Positions 1,387-27,808 of a DNA stretch of 64,000 bases are shown here, piece by piece. How positions within the stretch are numbered: position 1 is the stretch's first letter; each line of letters begins with the position of its first letter. This DNA comes from Escherichia coli (GTDB taxonomy: Bacteria > Pseudomonadota > Gammaproteobacteria > Enterobacterales > Enterobacteriaceae), in assembly GCF_003334355.1 (NCBI RefSeq), contig NZ_QOWP01000002.1. The stretch is one strand, 5' to 3'. Made by a program: the position numbers and the translations under genes. Below the pieces are notes generated by a model that saw only the letters and a list, made by a program, of their open reading frames with translations, made no database searches and was not told the DNA's origin.

Positions 1387-3261
1387 CTACTGCCGGGTAG
1401 CTTCGTTAACTAAGAGCGGGCGCACGGCAGTAGCCGCCTGATTTAGCGCTCTTTCATAAGCTGGCGTTCCAGCTTTAGTGTTTGCCAGACGTAAGAGCGC
1501 ATTCCTTGCTGCTTTGGATTCATACAAGCGCATCATTGCACCGAAACCAGCCTCAAGCCCCATTGATACGCCAAGAGTCGTAGTTGCGCCAATCGTCCTT
1601 ATCCTGTTGGCTTGCGATTGCCCCGTCTGAGTTACTACATTTGCGGTGTCTGATCTTGCTGTTTGCTGTAGAACTTCATGAAGAGCATCAAGTTCTTTCA
1701 TGTGCTTTCCAGAAAAAATAGCGTTGTAAATTTCACCGCCTGACTGAGATTTCAGCTTATTAACTTCCGTGATGAACTTGGCTGGAGAGTCACCGGCCTT
1801 TTCCGCTATTTTGCTGACGTAAGCTGCACGCATAGCATCTTTCCCTTTATCATCCAATGCGCTCCAGATTCGTTTCACGTCAGATGGTTTTCTGCTTAAT
1901 ACAACAGTATTTATAAGTTCAGGACTGGCTTCACTGCTTGCCTTGTTGAGCTTGTTAGCAATGTTTTTATTAAGCACCTTATTATAAACGTTTGCATAAT
2001 CGGAATTTGCTTTAAGGTATTTTGCTGCGTCTGAAGCACCGAGGTTTTTAGCAACTGCGTTACGAAGGTCTTTTGACATTGCATTCTCTACCATATTGGT
2101 AGCTGCTTTTGCCTGGTTGGGGAAGACCATGGCATCTCCCTGAACATTAGATCTAAATGCTGTTCTGTGCTGGCGCAAGAGATCAAACGTAACATCCAAA
2201 TCAGTTGCAGGGTTTGCTAATTCTTCACGTAGGTTACGCAAGGATGTAAGCAGGCTTTGATTGGCAGAAGTCCCAAGCCGTTCCTGTCTTGCGATCGCTG
2301 TATTCAGAGCATTCATGGTATTTGTGGTATCAACTGCGGCATTACCCATTTTATTGGTGACGTCATTGATAACAGCGCCAGCGGCATCCTTCCGTCCCCT
2401 TAACGTGGTGGTCAGAGATTTCACCACATCATCAGGGTTGTACTCACCAAAACGGTCAAAATAATTGCTTACCAGCTTACTACGCGTTGCATATTGCTCC
2501 GCTCGCTTTGAGCCTGTCCCGAGCAAAGCCCCCTCAGCATCCTGAGTAAGTCCGCGAGTGAAAGCATTTTTCGGCGGGATAACATCAGATGTCATTGGTG
2601 TCACGCCCATCGATTCTGATGTGGCAATTTTCTTTGCCACTTCTGGCGCAATATCACCTTTTATAGCCGTTATTCCACGCCCTATTCCCTTTGCTGCTGC
2701 GGAAAGAACCCCCTGAGCGGCAAGGTTAACTCCGGCATTTTTAGTTGCATTTTGTGCGAAATCGCCTTTCTGATTTGCGGCCTCTGCCAGTGATCCAATA
2801 GCCATGCTTCCTGCCGTTCCAACTCCTGGAACTAAATACCCGCCAATTGTTTCACCAGCTTGAGCGTAGGGGTCTGTCGGTCGATCGACTGGACGATAAA
2901 CATCATCCAAAACCTTGGGGCCACCAAGCCCCTGGCTGATTGCATTAATCAGGCTTGCGCCGCCCTGTAATACGTCGAATGGTATGTTTACCAGACCACG
3001 ACCAGCCTGCTCTGCAATTTGCCCTGCACTTTGACCACCTGTGAGCCAATCACCAGCTTGTTGCATCAATGATGGTTCTTCTTTCTGCTGCTGAGGCGGA
3101 GGGTATGCTGCATAAAACTGATCTCTTGCTTCAGCCCATTTGTCACCAGCCTTAGGGGCAACAACCTCATCAAAATATTGCGCTTGAGCCTGTGCTTTCT
3201 GTTCTTCAGTTAACGCCTGATACTGTGGAGAGGCGATAACATCTTTCCATGCTTTAGCCAT
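1387..3261 (-). CDS. ejection/internal virion protein, P22 gp16-like
   Basis: 624 aa, Ala/Gly/Gln-rich, last gene of late operon; size and position match P22 gp16 (609 aa). Confidence 0.7.
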
Positions 3262-4655
3262 TAATCACCCCATAGTGAAGAAAAGTTACTGCTGGCTGCT
3301 GGCTGTGATACCTGTGTAGGTTGAGATTGCTGCCGCTGAGATTTACCAACATTAACGTTATATTGTTGGTTGTAATTGTCGGTATATTGCTGAATGTCGC
3401 GCATTGATTGTTGCAGTGCTTCAGGGCTTGAGAAATCAACCTGTGGCATACCTTGAAAATACATCTTTGCTTCTGCAACGGTGTTGATACCGGATGCCCC
3501 CATGTCTCTGGCTGCTGCAATGCCCTGATTCTGCATCTTTCCTTGGATTCGCTGTGCAGCGTTGTATAGTTTCCTCTGATCACCACCAGATGCACGGCTA
3601 CGAATATCTGCACCAAGAGCAGGAGAACCTGAAGAGCCTGTAATGCCAGTCATGAAGCCAAGATCGTCAATTGATGCACCAGAAATTGCATCAAGATCTT
3701 TCTTCATTGCGTAATTCTGCGCGCTTGCTGCCGATGTAGCCGGAGCGGCAATAGAGCCAGCAGGGACGCGAACCATATTCCCCTCGTTGTCGATACCTTC
3801 GTAGAACGCATTAGCCCCAGCGCCGTGAAGCTTCCCGCCTACCGTTACAGTTCTGCCATCTGATAACTGAACTGTACGCTCATCATTCCCAGCGATTCCT
3901 CTTATTGACGCTCGCTTCATTGCCAAATCCTGACCTCGTCGCGCAGTAGAAGCAGATAAGTCCTGACCGCGCATCGTGATGTTCTGGCCTCGTGCTGTTA
4001 GTGCTTCTCCTGCCTGATTGCTGCGGATTGTCTCTGCCAGTCTTCCTCGGTCAATCTCACGACCAGCCATCTTGTCCTGAACATTGAAGTAATCAATTGG
4101 ACCAAGAGCAGCCATTCCAAGGTGATCAACAAACTCACCAAATCCTGAAGGGTTCTGCTGATACATCTGAGCAACGTTATTAGGGTCAACACCGACGCGA
4201 GTCAGTTCCTTGGCGTTGTTTTGCAGCCATGATTGCATTGCTTCTGGAGACGAGGCCGCAAGGCGTGCGCCAGCCGCTAAGGTGCCGATAGAATTGCGCT
4301 GGTCTTCGTCTGCCCACTTCATACCAGACTGAATCTTCTCTAATTGACCAGGATATTTGGCCATCAGATCTCGAACCTGCTGTCGATCACCTGATTGAAT
4401 AGCAGAAGCATAATCCTTTCTGAATGCCGCCTCTTGCTTCTGCTGATCATATTGCTGCAATCCTTGCATTGTGCTTGTTATTCCCTGCAGAGCCTGCAGA
4501 CCGATATTGTTGCGACCAAGCCTGGCATCCTCATTATTCTGACGAATGTAAGCCAGTGTCTCATTTACATCACTCGCCTTTGGCGCATTCTCATTTTGCG
4601 CACCAATTCCAGCCAGAAAACCACCGGAGTTGATGCTCTGTTGCCAAGTTGCCAC
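3261..4655 (-). CDS. ejection protein, P22 gp20-like
   Basis: 464 aa; synteny and size match P22 gp20 (471 aa). Confidence 0.7.
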
Positions 4656-23212: not shown

Positions 23213-24589
23213 TCATACGTCCGCCCCTTGTGCATATCGTCTGCCACGCGCAGCAGGCGCATTTGATGCTGTGCAAATCTGTCTGGCTTCATCCTGGTCA
23301 CATGCAACAAAGTGTCCGTTGCAGAACCGCTGGTAAACCGTACCAAGTGAGCCAAAACGGTTTTTCGTCACGATGATTTCAGCAAATGGCGCGGCGCTAC
23401 TGTTCTCGTCATATACCGCTTCCCGATAGAGCATGATGATTGAGTCTGCGTCCTGCTCAATGCTTCCTGAATCACGCAAATCTGCGTTTGTCGGGCGTTT
23501 GTTTGGTCGCTTCTCAACATCGCGCGAAAGCTGACTCAGGGAGATAACCGGTGTTTTCAGGTCTTTCGCCATCGCCTTCAGGCTTCCGGAGATGTGAGCA
23601 ATTGCGAGGTCGTTGCGGTCTGCTTTCGGCTTCTCAATCAGGCCAAGATAATCCGCCATGATGAGTGAGATGTTTGGATTTTCCTGTTTGTGCCGCTCTG
23701 CGATTGAGCGAATTTCTTCTACCGATAACCGCGAGGCATCGACTACCCATACATCCAAATCTGCAAGCTGACTCATGCCGTTAGCAACACGCGCCCAGCC
23801 TTCGTCATCCATCGATGCAGGATTTCGCAGTACGCTAACCGACATCCTCCCGGCGTTGGCAATGCTTCGCTCTGCAATCTGCAATGCGCTCATTTCCATT
23901 GAGAAAATCAATACTCCGCGCCGGACGTCAGAACCAGGAATAACGCGGCTTGCAACGCCTTCGGCAATCTTCAGCGCCAGCTCGGTTTTCCCCATACCAG
24001 GACGAGCAGCGATTATCACCAGGTCTTCTGCGTTCATCCCTCCGGTGATGGCGTCAAGTTCTTCGATTCCGGTCTTCAGGGTATCTGACTCTTCTCCGTT
24101 CCTCAGACGCCTGTCAAGCGTGTCAGTGTAGTCAGTGATGATTTCCCCTAACCGTACAGGTTTAACCTCGTCACGGGGCTTTCTGATGGCTGAGAGACGC
24201 TTTACAAGCTCGTCCATCGCCTGACTCGATGTATCGATGGTTCCGCTCTGAATTGGTTCACGCATTTCATCCATGATTTCCAGCACCAGACGGCGGTGAT
24301 AGTTATCTGCGACCATTCCGGCATATCCCTTCAGGTTTGCGGCACTCGGGCAGTTTTTGCTGGTCATCAGGATTGACGTGAAATGCTCCTCTCCGCACGC
24401 CTCGGCAACCATCAGCGCGTCGATTAAATTTCTGTTTCGCGCCTGCTTGCGGATAACCTCGAAGGCTTTCCGGTAGAGCGGAATTGAAAACGCTTCCGGC
24501 TCCAGCGTTGCCAGAACGTCGCTGGCGGTTGGTGTTAATCCACCAATCAGCAGGCCACCGATAACGCTCGCTTCGATATCCTGTCTCAT
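23213..24589 (-). CDS. DnaB-type replicative helicase (P22 gene 12-like)
   Basis: 458 aa with Walker A GMGKT and DnaB C-terminal motifs. Confidence 0.9.
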
Positions 24590-25416
24590 GCAATCCCCCT
24601 GTCTGCAAACTTCCCTTCCCGAACTCCCGTTAACGAGTCTTCCCTCAGCAGGTAATCAAAATCAGCCGTCCAGCCCGTGTCGTTGTCTCCGAAGTAAAAC
24701 GGCTTGGCCTGATGCACAAACGCCCTGACATACGCTCTGAAACCGTCCACATTTGGCGTTTTCAGTTGCGGGATGATTTTCTTCAGGCGGCGTTTGCGTT
24801 TCTCGTTGACCGCAACAGCGTGTGGCAGTCTGTCACCGACTTCGGTGTTGTAGGCGTTCAGGAAGGATTCGTAGTCGATTCGTTCTGCCTTGCGACGTTC
24901 AGGTTTAACCTGCCCATCGCCGCCCCCGTTAGGGGGTAAGGGGGTATTTGTATTTATTGTCTTTTGTATATTGTCTTTTGTGTTTGACTGATTCGGTAAA
25001 TTGCTTTTTACCGATTTGGTGAAGGTTTGTTTTACCGAATTAGTAAATGTTTTACCGAATCCGTTAACTTTCGTTTTCCACTCGGAAATGTTTGTATTCA
25101 TACCAACTTGACGCCCCACCTGAATGAGAACTCCCATTCTGATAAGCTCGTTTTTGGCGGTAGAGCATTTGGTTGGTGCCATGCCAGTGAGTTCAGCGAA
25201 CTGTTCGTTTCCGATCCAATCTATTTTTTTGTTGTAACCGTATGTCTTGCGCCACACAGCCATAACAATCAGTAACTGATGTGCAGTAAGCCCAGAAAGC
25301 ATGGCGGCTTCTAACAGTGTGTTTGCAGTCCGAGTGTAGCCATCTTCGAGTTCTGCCACGCGATGCTCCACGACCTCCAGTTGAGGCCTGTAATCAGCTA
25401 ACTTAACGACGCCCAT
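24586..25416 (-). CDS. replication initiator, lambda O / P22 gp18-like
   Basis: 276 aa; N-terminal O-like domain, low-complexity linker encoded over iterons. Confidence 0.75.
24981..25060. repeat. replication origin iterons (TTTTACCGAAT x3 plus one inverted copy) with adjacent AT-rich tract
   Basis: Copies starting 25005, 25030, 25050 and inverted copy 24981-24990; CCCCCGTTAGGGGG and TTGTCTTTTGT repeats nearby. Confidence 0.6.
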
Positions 25417-25596: not shown

Positions 25597-25893
25597 TCAG
25601 AATTGCATATCAATTTGCTTAAAATCCTCGGTGGCAGCCGGGGATTTTTTCTTTGTGATTTCATCAAGCGCATACTTAAAAGCCCTGCTAATCGGACTGA
25701 TGTCTGATGCCATTCCGAAAGCACACAAGACCGAAGCAATAAATCTCCAGTCCGTTCTGCTTATCTTCGATTCATGACAGCCAATCATCTTTGCCAGACC
25801 GCGCTGGGTAAGCGTTGACAGGTTGATGAGTAAATCAGTTTCAGCGCGATCAATTTCTCGCTGTGTTGGCTTGCTGTAACTTGTTTGTGTCAT
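25597..25893 (-). CDS. cII: CII-like transcriptional activator
   Basis: 98 aa; C-terminus KKKSPAATEDFKQIDMQF parallels lambda CII KKRPAATERSEQIQMEF. Confidence 0.75.
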   Translation of the reverse strand: MTQTSYSKPTQREIDRAETDLLINLSTLTQRGLAKMIGCHESKISRTDWRFIASVLCAFGMASDISPISRAFKYALDEITKKKSPAATEDFKQIDMQF

Positions 25894-26014: not shown

Positions 26015-26245
26015 TTACATAACAAACTGCTGTTTACCGATACGGCGAATCTGTGCTGCTGAGTACTTGCCGCCTGATGCCTTGGCGATCTTATCCGCAT
26101 ATTCGGTTTCACCAGTGAACTCGGTACGCGGCAGAGAACCACGCTCAAGCCACTTATAGATGGCTTTTGGCGTAAGTCCACAAACATCAGCCACAACAGA
26201 AACTCGAACGGATTTGATAACTTCTCCAAACGTAACTTCGTTCAT
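26015..26245 (-). CDS. cro: Cro-like HTH repressor
   Basis: 76 aa HTH protein divergent from cI across operator repeats. Confidence 0.6.
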   Translation of the reverse strand: MNEVTFGEVIKSVRVSVVADVCGLTPKAIYKWLERGSLPRTEFTGETEYADKIAKASGGKYSAAQIRRIGKQQFVM

Positions 26246-26261
26246 GCTTCTCTCCTGTGGT

Positions 26262-26331
26262 GAACTTATGGTTCATATTATGACGGAACTGATAGTACAG
26301 TCAATACCTAATATAGTTGAACTTATGGTTC
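26262..26331. promoter_or_regulatory. cI/cro operator region: two copies of palindrome TGAACTTATGGTTCA
   Basis: Identical 15-mers at 26262-26276 and 26317-26331 between divergent cro and cI; second overlaps cI start codon. Confidence 0.55.
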
Positions 26332-27032
26332 AACAGAAAGAGCGTGAAACTTTCTCGCAGAGGCTTGCGCTGGCCTGTGATAAAGCGGGATTACCTTTGC
26401 ATGGTAGGCAGGCTGATTTAGCTGTCAGGCTTAAGGTCACACCAAAAGCCATTAGTAAATGGTTCAACGGGGAGTCAATACCAAGAAAAGACAAGATGGA
26501 ATCTCTGGCTTCGGTGCTGGGAACTACTGCTGCATATCTGCATGGCTATGCTGATTATGACGGTATCACGGTAAATCATCTATCAAGATCAAATGATTCT
26601 TATCGTGTTGATGTATTGGATGTTCAGGCGAGCGCCGGGCCAGGAACCATGGTTTCCAATGAATTTATAGAAAAGATAAGAGCAATTGAATATACGCCCG
26701 AGCAGGCAAGAATTTTATTTAATGGAAGGCCACAGGAAAGCGTAAAAGTCATCACGGTTCGCGGTGACAGCATGGAGGGAACCATCAATCCGGGAGATGA
26801 GATCTTTGTTGATGTATCCATAACCTATTTTGATGGCGATGGCATTTATGTGTTTGTATACGGGAAAACAATGCACGTTAAGCGCCTGCAAATGCAAAAG
26901 AACAGGCTTGCCGTCATCTCTGACAATGCCGCTTATGATCGATGGTACATAGAAGAAGGTGAAGAAGAGCAACTTCACATTCTAGCCAAAGTCCTCATTA
27001 GGCAGTCAATCGATTACAAGCGATTCGGATAA
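26325..27032 (+). CDS. cI: CI prophage repressor (HTH + S24 LexA-like autopeptidase)
   Basis: N-terminal HTH, C-terminal S24 fold (GDSMEGTINPGDEIFVD …KRL). Confidence 0.85.
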   Translation: MVQQKERETFSQRLALACDKAGLPLHGRQADLAVRLKVTPKAISKWFNGESIPRKDKMESLASVLGTTAAYLHGYADYDGITVNHLSRSNDSYRVDVLDVQASAGPGTMVSNEFIEKIRAIEYTPEQARILFNGRPQESVKVITVRGDSMEGTINPGDEIFVDVSITYFDGDGIYVFVYGKTMHVKRLQMQKNRLAVISDNAAYDRWYIEEGEEEQLHILAKVLIRQSIDYKRFG

Positions 27033-27274
27033 AAATAAATTTCCTTAAAGTTCACTAACTTATGATGTAGTGAGCTTTTTATACCCATAAAATGTACTAT
27101 TGGTACTTTACATTAATGAACTTTAAGTACATCATAAGCCCATAGACGAACGGCGCGTCTTTAAACCATGCGTCGGGAGCGCGGCGGGTTCAGGATGAAC
27201 GGCAATGCTGCTCACTACAAAAGAACATTTCCATAACCGGAGGGTTATTGAAGTGTTTTTGTTAGGAGGTTTAA

Positions 27275-27808
27275 GTGGATCTTACTCAAGTGTCTGTAAG
27301 GGAGATTCTTCATTACAATCCTGTGAGTGGTGACTTTTATTGGAAGCCGAGAGCAAAGCATTTGTTTGCGGATAACAGAGCTGCCTTGACGTGGAACAAG
27401 AAGTATCCAGGTAAAAAGGCTGGCTCACCTGACAACAAGGGTTATCTGAGAATAAATATTGGAGGTAAAAAATTTAAGTCTCACAGACTTGCATGGCTTT
27501 ACGTGCATGGCTACTGGCCTGATGTGATTGATCACATAAACGGCGTTAAGGATGACAACAGAATCTCCAATTTAAGAAGCGTTTCTTTCAAAGAGAATAT
27601 GAAAAACATGCCTTTAAAATCATCTTCATCAACTGGAGTTACAGGTGTTGAAGCAAGAAAAGAGCATGGGTTTTATGTTGCATCGATAACTGTGGATGGA
27701 AAACGAAAATACCTAGGCTCATTCAAACTTTTAGATGATGCCAAACAAGCAAGGAAAGAAGCCAATGCACTATATGGCTTTCATGAAAATCATGGACGGA
27801 GCCAGTAA
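27275..27808 (+). CDS. HNH endonuclease with AP2 DNA-binding domain
   Basis: HRLAWLYVHGYWPDVIDHINGVKDDNRISNLR (HNH_3) followed by AP2-like TGVTGV…GFYVASITVDGKRKYLGSF. Confidence 0.8.
   Translation: MDLTQVSVREILHYNPVSGDFYWKPRAKHLFADNRAALTWNKKYPGKKAGSPDNKGYLRINIGGKKFKSHRLAWLYVHGYWPDVIDHINGVKDDNRISNLRSVSFKENMKNMPLKSSSSTGVTGVEARKEHGFYVASITVDGKRKYLGSFKLLDDAKQARKEANALYGFHENHGRSQ

Follow-up and report, generated by a model that had tools for sequence, protein, structure and literature searches.

A probable P22-type lambdoid replication origin within the mosaic O gene of an Escherichia coli prophage

Introduction

The replication origin of phage lambda is located inside gene O and contains four palindromic iterons (NC_001416, iterons 39034-39118) with annotated starts at 39034, 39054, 39078 and 39101. 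An AT-rich tract follows directly after iteron 4, and lambda unwinding occurs in this tract (PMC7466680). An inverted repeat (GTCAGAG...CTCTGAC) is found approximately 40-50 nucleotides further on. Transcription from pR runs across the origin, and the lambda P protein recruits the host DnaB. In the Stx phages 933W and P27, too, a lambdoid origin is located centrally in gene O, where an AT-rich tract comes after the iterons (PMC7466680); their iterons are six in number and of the lambda type, as is their O/P pair. In P22, gene 18 contains four repeats of about 20 bp that are distinct from those of lambda (PMC8022706). Viable hybrids in which the P22 18-12 segment stands in place of the lambda O-P-ori segment have been grown in E. 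coli (PMC3349717).

Here we analysed a stretch of 64,000 nucleotides of E. coli DNA (the window, to which all positions refer), for which a sequence-only reading had proposed a probable replication origin within an O-like gene. The lambda-like layout, the alignment to an annotated P22 origin and the co-variation of iterons and initiator N-domain support this proposal. We consider it very probable that positions 24923-25067 are a lambdoid prophage replication origin of the P22 gene-18 subtype, built like ori-lambda. The element is not new: it is the already described P22-type lambdoid origin, present in the mosaic O gene of an E. coli prophage.

Results and Discussion

The candidate origin is located in an O-like initiator gene

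The features of the locus are listed in Table 1. Residues 19-113 of the O-like initiator match Pfam Phage_rep_O (PF04492; phage_O_Nterm) with an E value of 1.7e-36. The protein also matches TIGR01610 ("phage replication protein O, N-terminal domain"; NCBIfam) with 85 bits, the cutoff being 45.5, and over its whole length PHROG 345 (phrog_345), "replication initiation O-like". An AlphaFold2 model was built from a 24-sequence alignment. It predicts confidently an N-domain of helices and a beta-hairpin (approximately residues 27-118), followed by an unstructured linker with a pLDDT below 50 (residues 119-177) and a helical C-domain of moderate confidence (approximately 178 to 260). Iterons, AT-rich tract and hairpin correspond to codons 117-165 of the gene. 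According to the model, the candidate origin thus sits in the segment coding for the linker between the two initiator domains, as in lambda. When PDB chains were searched with the initiator sequence, no match was obtained at E values up to 1, which leaves no solved homologue to define the DNA-binding mode.

Table 1. Features of the candidate origin and of the genes and promoter associated with it. The strand is that of the coding direction of the O-like gene where minus is given.
Feature	Position	Strand	Coding strand sequence	+ strand sequence	Remarks
pR-like promoter	26275-26304	minus			TTGACT, 16 nt, CATAAT; 10/12 matches in promoter scan
O-like replication initiator gene	24586-25416	minus			276 aa; ORF and Pfam, TIGR01610, phrog_345 matches
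Iteron 1	25051-25067	minus	TTAACGGATTCGGTAAA	TTTACCGAATCCGTTAA	
Iteron 2	25031-25047	minus	TTTACTAATTCGGTAAA	TTTACCGAATTAGTAAA	
Iteron 3	25007-25023	minus	TTCACCAAATCGGTAAA	TTTACCGATTTGGTGAA	
Iteron 4	24984-25000	minus	TTTACCGAATCAGTCAA	TTGACTGATTCGGTAAA	
AT-rich tract	24945-24983	minus	ACACAAAAGACAATATACAAAAGACAATAAATACAAATA		39 bp; directly promoter-distal to iteron 4
G+C-rich inverted repeat	24923-24944	minus	CCCCCTTACCCCC-TAAC-GGGGG		distal to AT-rich tract
DnaB-like replicative helicase gene	23213-24589	minus			458 aa; phrog_19, E=1.4e-135

Four palindromic iterons are arranged in the register of lambda

Four related 17-mers are found on the + strand within 24984-25067; the four iterons described in the sequence-only reading, with a spacing of about 20-25 bp, are all present. 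It had taken an 11-mer as the repeat unit; the repeat as such holds, but the unit is more accurately an imperfect 17-bp palindrome with the consensus TTTACCGA-A-TCGGTAAA and two to three mismatches in each copy. Every iteron has one perfect 8-nt half-site, and its other half-site contains two mismatches. The core TTTACCGAAT is present in three exact copies and one copy with one mismatch within 77 bp. One of the exact copies is inverted, as had been noted, and the fuller account of this inversion is that iteron 4 looked inverted because its perfect half-site is on the opposite side. On the coding strand the iterons start at 25067, 25047, 25023 and 25000, which gives a start-to-start spacing of 20/24/23 bp (23/24/20 on the + strand).

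The four iterons start at offsets 349, 369, 393 and 416 of the coding sequence, corresponding to frames 1, 0, 0 and 2, and the peptides encoded by iterons 1-4 are NGFGK, FTNSVK, FTKSVK and LPNQSN. Since the iterons occur in three frame/orientation contexts with differing peptides, the repeat is in the DNA and not in the peptide.

For a chance estimate, 10-mer copies with at most one mismatch were counted in 1596 overlapping 161-bp windows of the 64-kb sequence. Four such copies were reached only in the two windows that cover this locus. A first-order, composition-matched Markov null reached the four-copy count in 21 of 1000 simulations, which is only moderately significant, because the stretch is of low complexity. 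The repeat count alone is therefore not decisive, and the weight rests on the palindromic form of the 17-mers, the lambda-identical spacing and the comparative data.

A fifth iteron-like 17-mer, TTCGCCGTATCGGTAAA, is located at 26033-26049 in the cro-like gene and has three mismatches to the consensus. By our own estimate, which assumes equal base frequencies, chance alone would yield approximately 0.15 sites of this kind in 64 kb. Of the 80 related loci described below, only L038 has the site again, and the iterons of L038 are of the HK97 type; the site therefore follows the cro allele rather than the O type. We rejected this site as a part of the origin, and it is probably a chance match.

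An AT-rich tract and an inverted repeat follow the iterons

The AT-rich tract begins with ACACAAAAGA and has 78% A+T across its first 40 nucleotides. The G+C content reaches its minimum in this region, 0.32 across the element compared with approximately 0.52 in the flanks, and the strand asymmetry is strong. TTGTCTTTTGT occurs twice in the tract (24957-24967 and 24971-24981), which on the coding strand corresponds to two ACAAAAGACAAT units 14 bp apart. The tract is presumed to be the unwinding element. Next to it, a hairpin CCCCCGTTAGGGGG (CCCCC-N4-GGGGG) is located at 24923-24936, and a second G5 run on the + strand at 24940-24944; the G5 run of the coding strand can pair with either C5 run. 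The hairpin is present in both the MFE and the centroid single-strand DNA folds. The adjoining hairpin and the AT-rich tract with repeats, both pointed out in the sequence-only reading, were thus found again. A scan of the whole window with Rfam at gathering thresholds gave no match, and neither did a tRNA/tmRNA scan.

The locus aligns to the P22 origin and shares its layout with lambda

Positions 25067-24923 align without gaps and exactly to the rep_origin feature 32840-32984 of P22virB-3 (OQ031658.1) inside gene 18, which is labelled "bi-directional replication origin similar to phage lambda", the P22 annotation itself having been made by similarity. P22 has identical iterons 1, 3 and 4, an identical AT-rich tract and the same hairpin stem. 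In iteron 2, three of the 17 positions differ (P22 TTTACCAGATCGGTAAA), all of them central or in the degenerate half, and the hairpin loop differs at one nucleotide. The initiator N-domain is 93% identical, and the partner is in both cases a phage-encoded DnaB-type helicase of the gene 12 type (approximately 90% identical). In contrast, the C-domain is only 58-59% identical to the P22 type and belongs to the HK97/BTP1 type (98-100%), the first nine codons are HK97-like, and the host is E. coli, whereas P22 is a Salmonella phage. With regard to the P22 subtype, the locus therefore has the iterons, the N-domain and the DnaB-type helicase, but not the C-domain.

As in lambda, the candidate origin lies inside an O-family initiator gene, all elements being within the open reading frame, as the sequence-only reading had stated. 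The likeness extends to four palindromic iterons spaced by 20/24/23 bp, to an AT-rich tract directly after iteron 4 that opens with the identical 12 nucleotides, ACACAAAAGACA, to an inverted repeat at the equivalent distance and to transcription from pR across the origin. After these first 12 nucleotides the sequence of the AT-rich tract departs from that of lambda. The iteron sequence is a different one (TCCCTCAAAACGAGGGA against TTTACCGAATCGGTAAA); the two initiators share 42% identity in the N-domain, and their C-domains are unrelated (7%). Where lambda encodes P, the window has a downstream gene for a DnaB-like helicase, and neither the window segment nor any of the 80 loci gave a match to lambda P in a tblastn search. 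A lambda O/P origin in the strict sense would combine a P-type loader downstream with the lambda iteron sequence, and the locus has neither. The gene location, the iterons and their register, the AT-rich tract, the inverted repeat and the matching of iterons and N-domain are all those of a lambdoid origin. From the origins of the Stx phages, it differs in having four P22-type iterons and a DnaB-like partner.

Compared with gene O/gene P of HK97, gene order, C-domain, AT-rich tract, hairpin and helicase are essentially identical (98-100%). The N-domain of HK97 is a different one (44% identity), and the same four slots are occupied in HK97 by iterons of another type (TTAGCCAAGTCGGCTAA).

The O gene is a three-part mosaic

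A comparison with HK97, P22 and BTP1 divides the O gene into three parts. The first 27 nucleotides (codons 1-9) match HK97. The part from approximately codon 20 to the end of iteron 4, which comprises the N-domain and the iterons, matches P22 and BTP1. From ACACAAAAGA on, the gene matches HK97 and BTP1, and this part includes the AT-rich tract, the hairpin and the C-domain. The junctions are located in a conserved LEVVEHRVA-coding stretch near the 5' end and at ACACAAAAGA. The mosaic structure follows from the C-domain identities, 58-59% to the P22 type and 98-100% to the HK97/BTP1 type. Judged from these alignments, a P22-type origin-recognition cassette has been joined to an HK97-type C-domain, the helicase-recruiting domain.

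Iterons, initiator domains and partner genes in related loci

For a broader comparison, 80 O-gene loci with 47-100% protein identity were taken from IMG/VR, and lambda was added. In all 80 loci and in lambda, ACACAAAAGA with at most one mismatch is found in the middle of the gene, right after iteron 4. When the loci are aligned on this sequence, four palindromic 17-mers in the 20/24/23-bp register are seen in most of them. The iterons fall into the classes TTTACCGA..TCGGTAAA (window and P22), TTAGCCAA..GCTAA (HK97), GTCACC..GGTGAC, GTTACC..GGTAAC, TTAGCAGA..TCTGCTAA and TCCCTC..GAGGGA (lambda). Loci L063-L065, L077 and L085 do not fit all four slots of the fixed register: no recognisable iteron is present in their first one or two slots, and the O genes of L063 and L085 are longer. 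The number or the spacing of the iterons may differ in these loci.

The co-variation of iterons and initiator domains was determined for 56 non-identical loci. All loci with TTTACCGA-type iterons have an N-domain at least 81% identical to that of the window, their C-domains ranging from 5 to 100%. All loci of the other iteron types have an N-domain at most 57% identical to it, even where the C-domain is 100% identical (HK97). The half-site distance correlates with N-domain identity with a Spearman coefficient of -0.62 and with C-domain identity with one of -0.27. These data indicate that the iteron sequence tracks the N-terminal DNA-binding domain and not the C-terminal domain.

Within the TTTACCGA class, 12% of the outer 5+5 nucleotides are variable, compared with 50% of the central seven nucleotides and 69% of the spacers. 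The corresponding values for the TTAGCC class are 10%, 61% and 56%. This pattern shows DNA-level constraint on the outer 5+5 nucleotides of the iterons, and it fits a dimer that contacts two half-sites approximately one helical turn apart. The footprints of lambda O at the distal G-tracks of each iteron (PMC7466680) agree with the constraint on the outer positions.

The AT-rich tract is AT-rich and strand-asymmetric in every lineage, lambda included. After it, a perfect inverted repeat of at least 5 bp was found in 40 of 40 distinct sequences (25% of shuffles), and one of at least 6 bp in 21 of 40 (6% of shuffles). It is mostly located at +37 to +51 nucleotides after ACACAAAAGA. At least five unrelated stems are used: CCCCC/GGGGG, GTCATC/GATGAC, GCCTGAAC/GTTCAGGC, ATCCCCT/AGGGGAT and, in lambda, GTCAGAG/CTCTGAC. 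The same position in every lambdoid origin examined together with at least five unrelated stems suggests an element that depends on structure and not on sequence, for example a cruciform or a single-strand hairpin, which we put forward only tentatively. Such a repeat might bound the unwound bubble or position the entry of the helicase.

In these loci, the type of the initiator C-domain goes with the downstream partner gene. HK97-like and P22-like C-domains are followed by closely related DnaB-like helicases. L080 has P22-type iterons and N-domain with a C-domain that is 10% identical; its downstream protein (~2330-3429) has no detectable similarity to the helicase of the window and looks primase-like by eye. 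L081 also combines P22-type iterons and N-domain with a different C-domain (5% identical), and its downstream protein (~2580-3464) is a distant DnaB homologue (26% identical). The partners in L080 and L081 show that the recognition cassette combines with several different partner proteins.

Alternative explanations

The small remaining doubt about the origin is divided between a decayed or inactive origin and a mainly recombinational role of the conserved tract. An origin by descent that is now a non-functional relic in a defective prophage is conceivable, as many E. coli prophages are defective. The state of the locus makes this very improbable. The O and helicase reading frames are intact and overlap as in functional phages, the promoter and the upstream genes are intact as well, and all four iterons keep the conserved outer positions. 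Moreover, two other complete E. coli chromosomes carry the 201 bp around the candidate origin at 100% identity and many further genomes at 99.5%, and at least 80% of the 201 bp is covered in 35 of 5426 genomes. Identical O proteins are also found on IMG/VR viral contigs of up to 40 kb. The prophage could still be replication-defective for reasons outside the origin segment.

About equally improbable is that the conserved AT-rich/C-rich segment is primarily a linker for recombination between N-domain/iteron and C-domain/helicase cassettes rather than an unwinding element. Upstream of ACACAAAAGA the HK97 sequence diverges from that of the window, and downstream of it the two are nearly identical, with the junction exactly there; the second junction is in the LEVVEHRVA-coding stretch, and L080 and L081 keep the iterons and N-domain with unrelated C-domains, all of which would be expected of such a linker. 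However, the tract keeps its AT-richness and strand asymmetry in all lineages, even in lambda, whose sequence departs after 12 nucleotides and in which this very tract is unwound (PMC7466680). Recombination and unwinding are also not mutually exclusive: the conserved flanks may double as recombination joints, which is compatible with origin function.

That the repeats are a by-product of coding for a repeated or low-complexity linker peptide (FTNSVK/FTKSVK), with no cis-acting role, is the least probable explanation and can practically be dismissed: iterons 2 and 3 do share a frame and encode the similar FTNSVKQ and FTKSVKS, and the region encodes a predicted disordered, low-complexity linker, but iterons 1 and 4 lie in other frames or orientations and encode unrelated peptides, conservation follows iteron geometry (outer 5+5 nucleotides) and not codon position, the iteron type switches together with the N-terminal DNA-binding domain, and the register is identical to that of the experimentally defined O-binding sites of lambda. 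The frame analysis led us to reject the peptide-repeat explanation.

Proposed mechanism of initiation

For the P22-type lambdoid origin that we prefer, a sequence of initiation steps can be proposed by analogy with lambda (PMC7466680, PMC12663957). Dimers of the O-like protein would bind each iteron via the N-terminal winged-helix domain, and the four iteron complexes would assemble into a bent nucleoprotein structure. On supercoiled DNA, this bent complex would open the adjacent AT-rich tract, aided by transcription from pR through the region. The C-domain would then recruit the phage's own DnaB-like helicase, encoded directly downstream, onto the opened strands, as in P22; this step differs in lambda, where a P-DnaB complex is used instead. 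Host primase and polymerase would finally begin bidirectional theta replication.

Significance

The analysis puts the candidate origin of this prophage at 24923-25067, with iterons of the P22 specificity class. Its practical value is modest and lies mainly in annotation. The assignment can be used to predict replication incompatibility or cross-activation between co-resident lambdoid prophages, as well as for the design of ori-based plasmids or interference constructs. With regard to the evolution of lambdoid origins, the 80 loci illustrate a fixed scaffold of four slots at 20/24/23 bp, the ACACAAAAGA anchor, the AT-rich tract and the inverted repeat, within which the recognition cassettes are exchangeable. 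Recent work reported that Lamassu and OLD are enriched at the iterons of lambda. A catalogue of iteron classes may therefore help to predict the phages that trigger Lamassu/OLD. The inverted repeat, like the palindromic iterons, could be sensed at phage origins by SMC-like/OLD-type defence (PMC12663957; bioRxiv 10.64898/2026.07.10.737580).

Early operon and genomic context

The locus is the early-right operon of a lambdoid prophage. The gene order shows that the pR-like promoter serves the genes for cro, cII, a 53-aa ORF, O and the helicase, and transcription that drives the O and helicase genes thus runs across the origin. The cI-like repressor gene faces the opposite way to the cro-like and cII-like genes. 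The helicase gene overlaps the O gene by four nucleotides at the O stop codon. Its product also matches TIGR00665 and TIGR03600, below their equivalog cutoffs, and is 90.6% identical to the helicase of a P22-type locus (L021; gene 12 product). The DnaB-like helicase is presumably the protein loaded at the origin. The surrounding 20 kb match HK97, CUS-3, HK022 and similar phages in mosaic pieces.

Several minor observations were made in the same region. Copies of TGAACCATAAGTTCA at 26261-26275 and 26318-26332 (minus strand) flank the pR-like promoter between the cro-like and the cI-like gene and are probably OR operators. Three related copies of the AAAGTTCACT type are located at 27001-27200, immediately beyond the cI-like gene and at the place expected for OL. 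A strong terminator-like hairpin with a 12-bp stem followed by TTCTTTGT is found at 25621-25648 on the + strand, its T-run extending to approximately 25658. It is antisense to the 3' end of the cII-like gene. In lambda the terminator of the oop antisense RNA is found at this position, and in P22 records an oop promoter and an oop terminator are annotated at the corresponding site. A 177-aa ORF (27275-27808, + strand), which separates the cI-like gene from the leftward early genes, encodes a protein that by eye resembles an HNH homing endonuclease.
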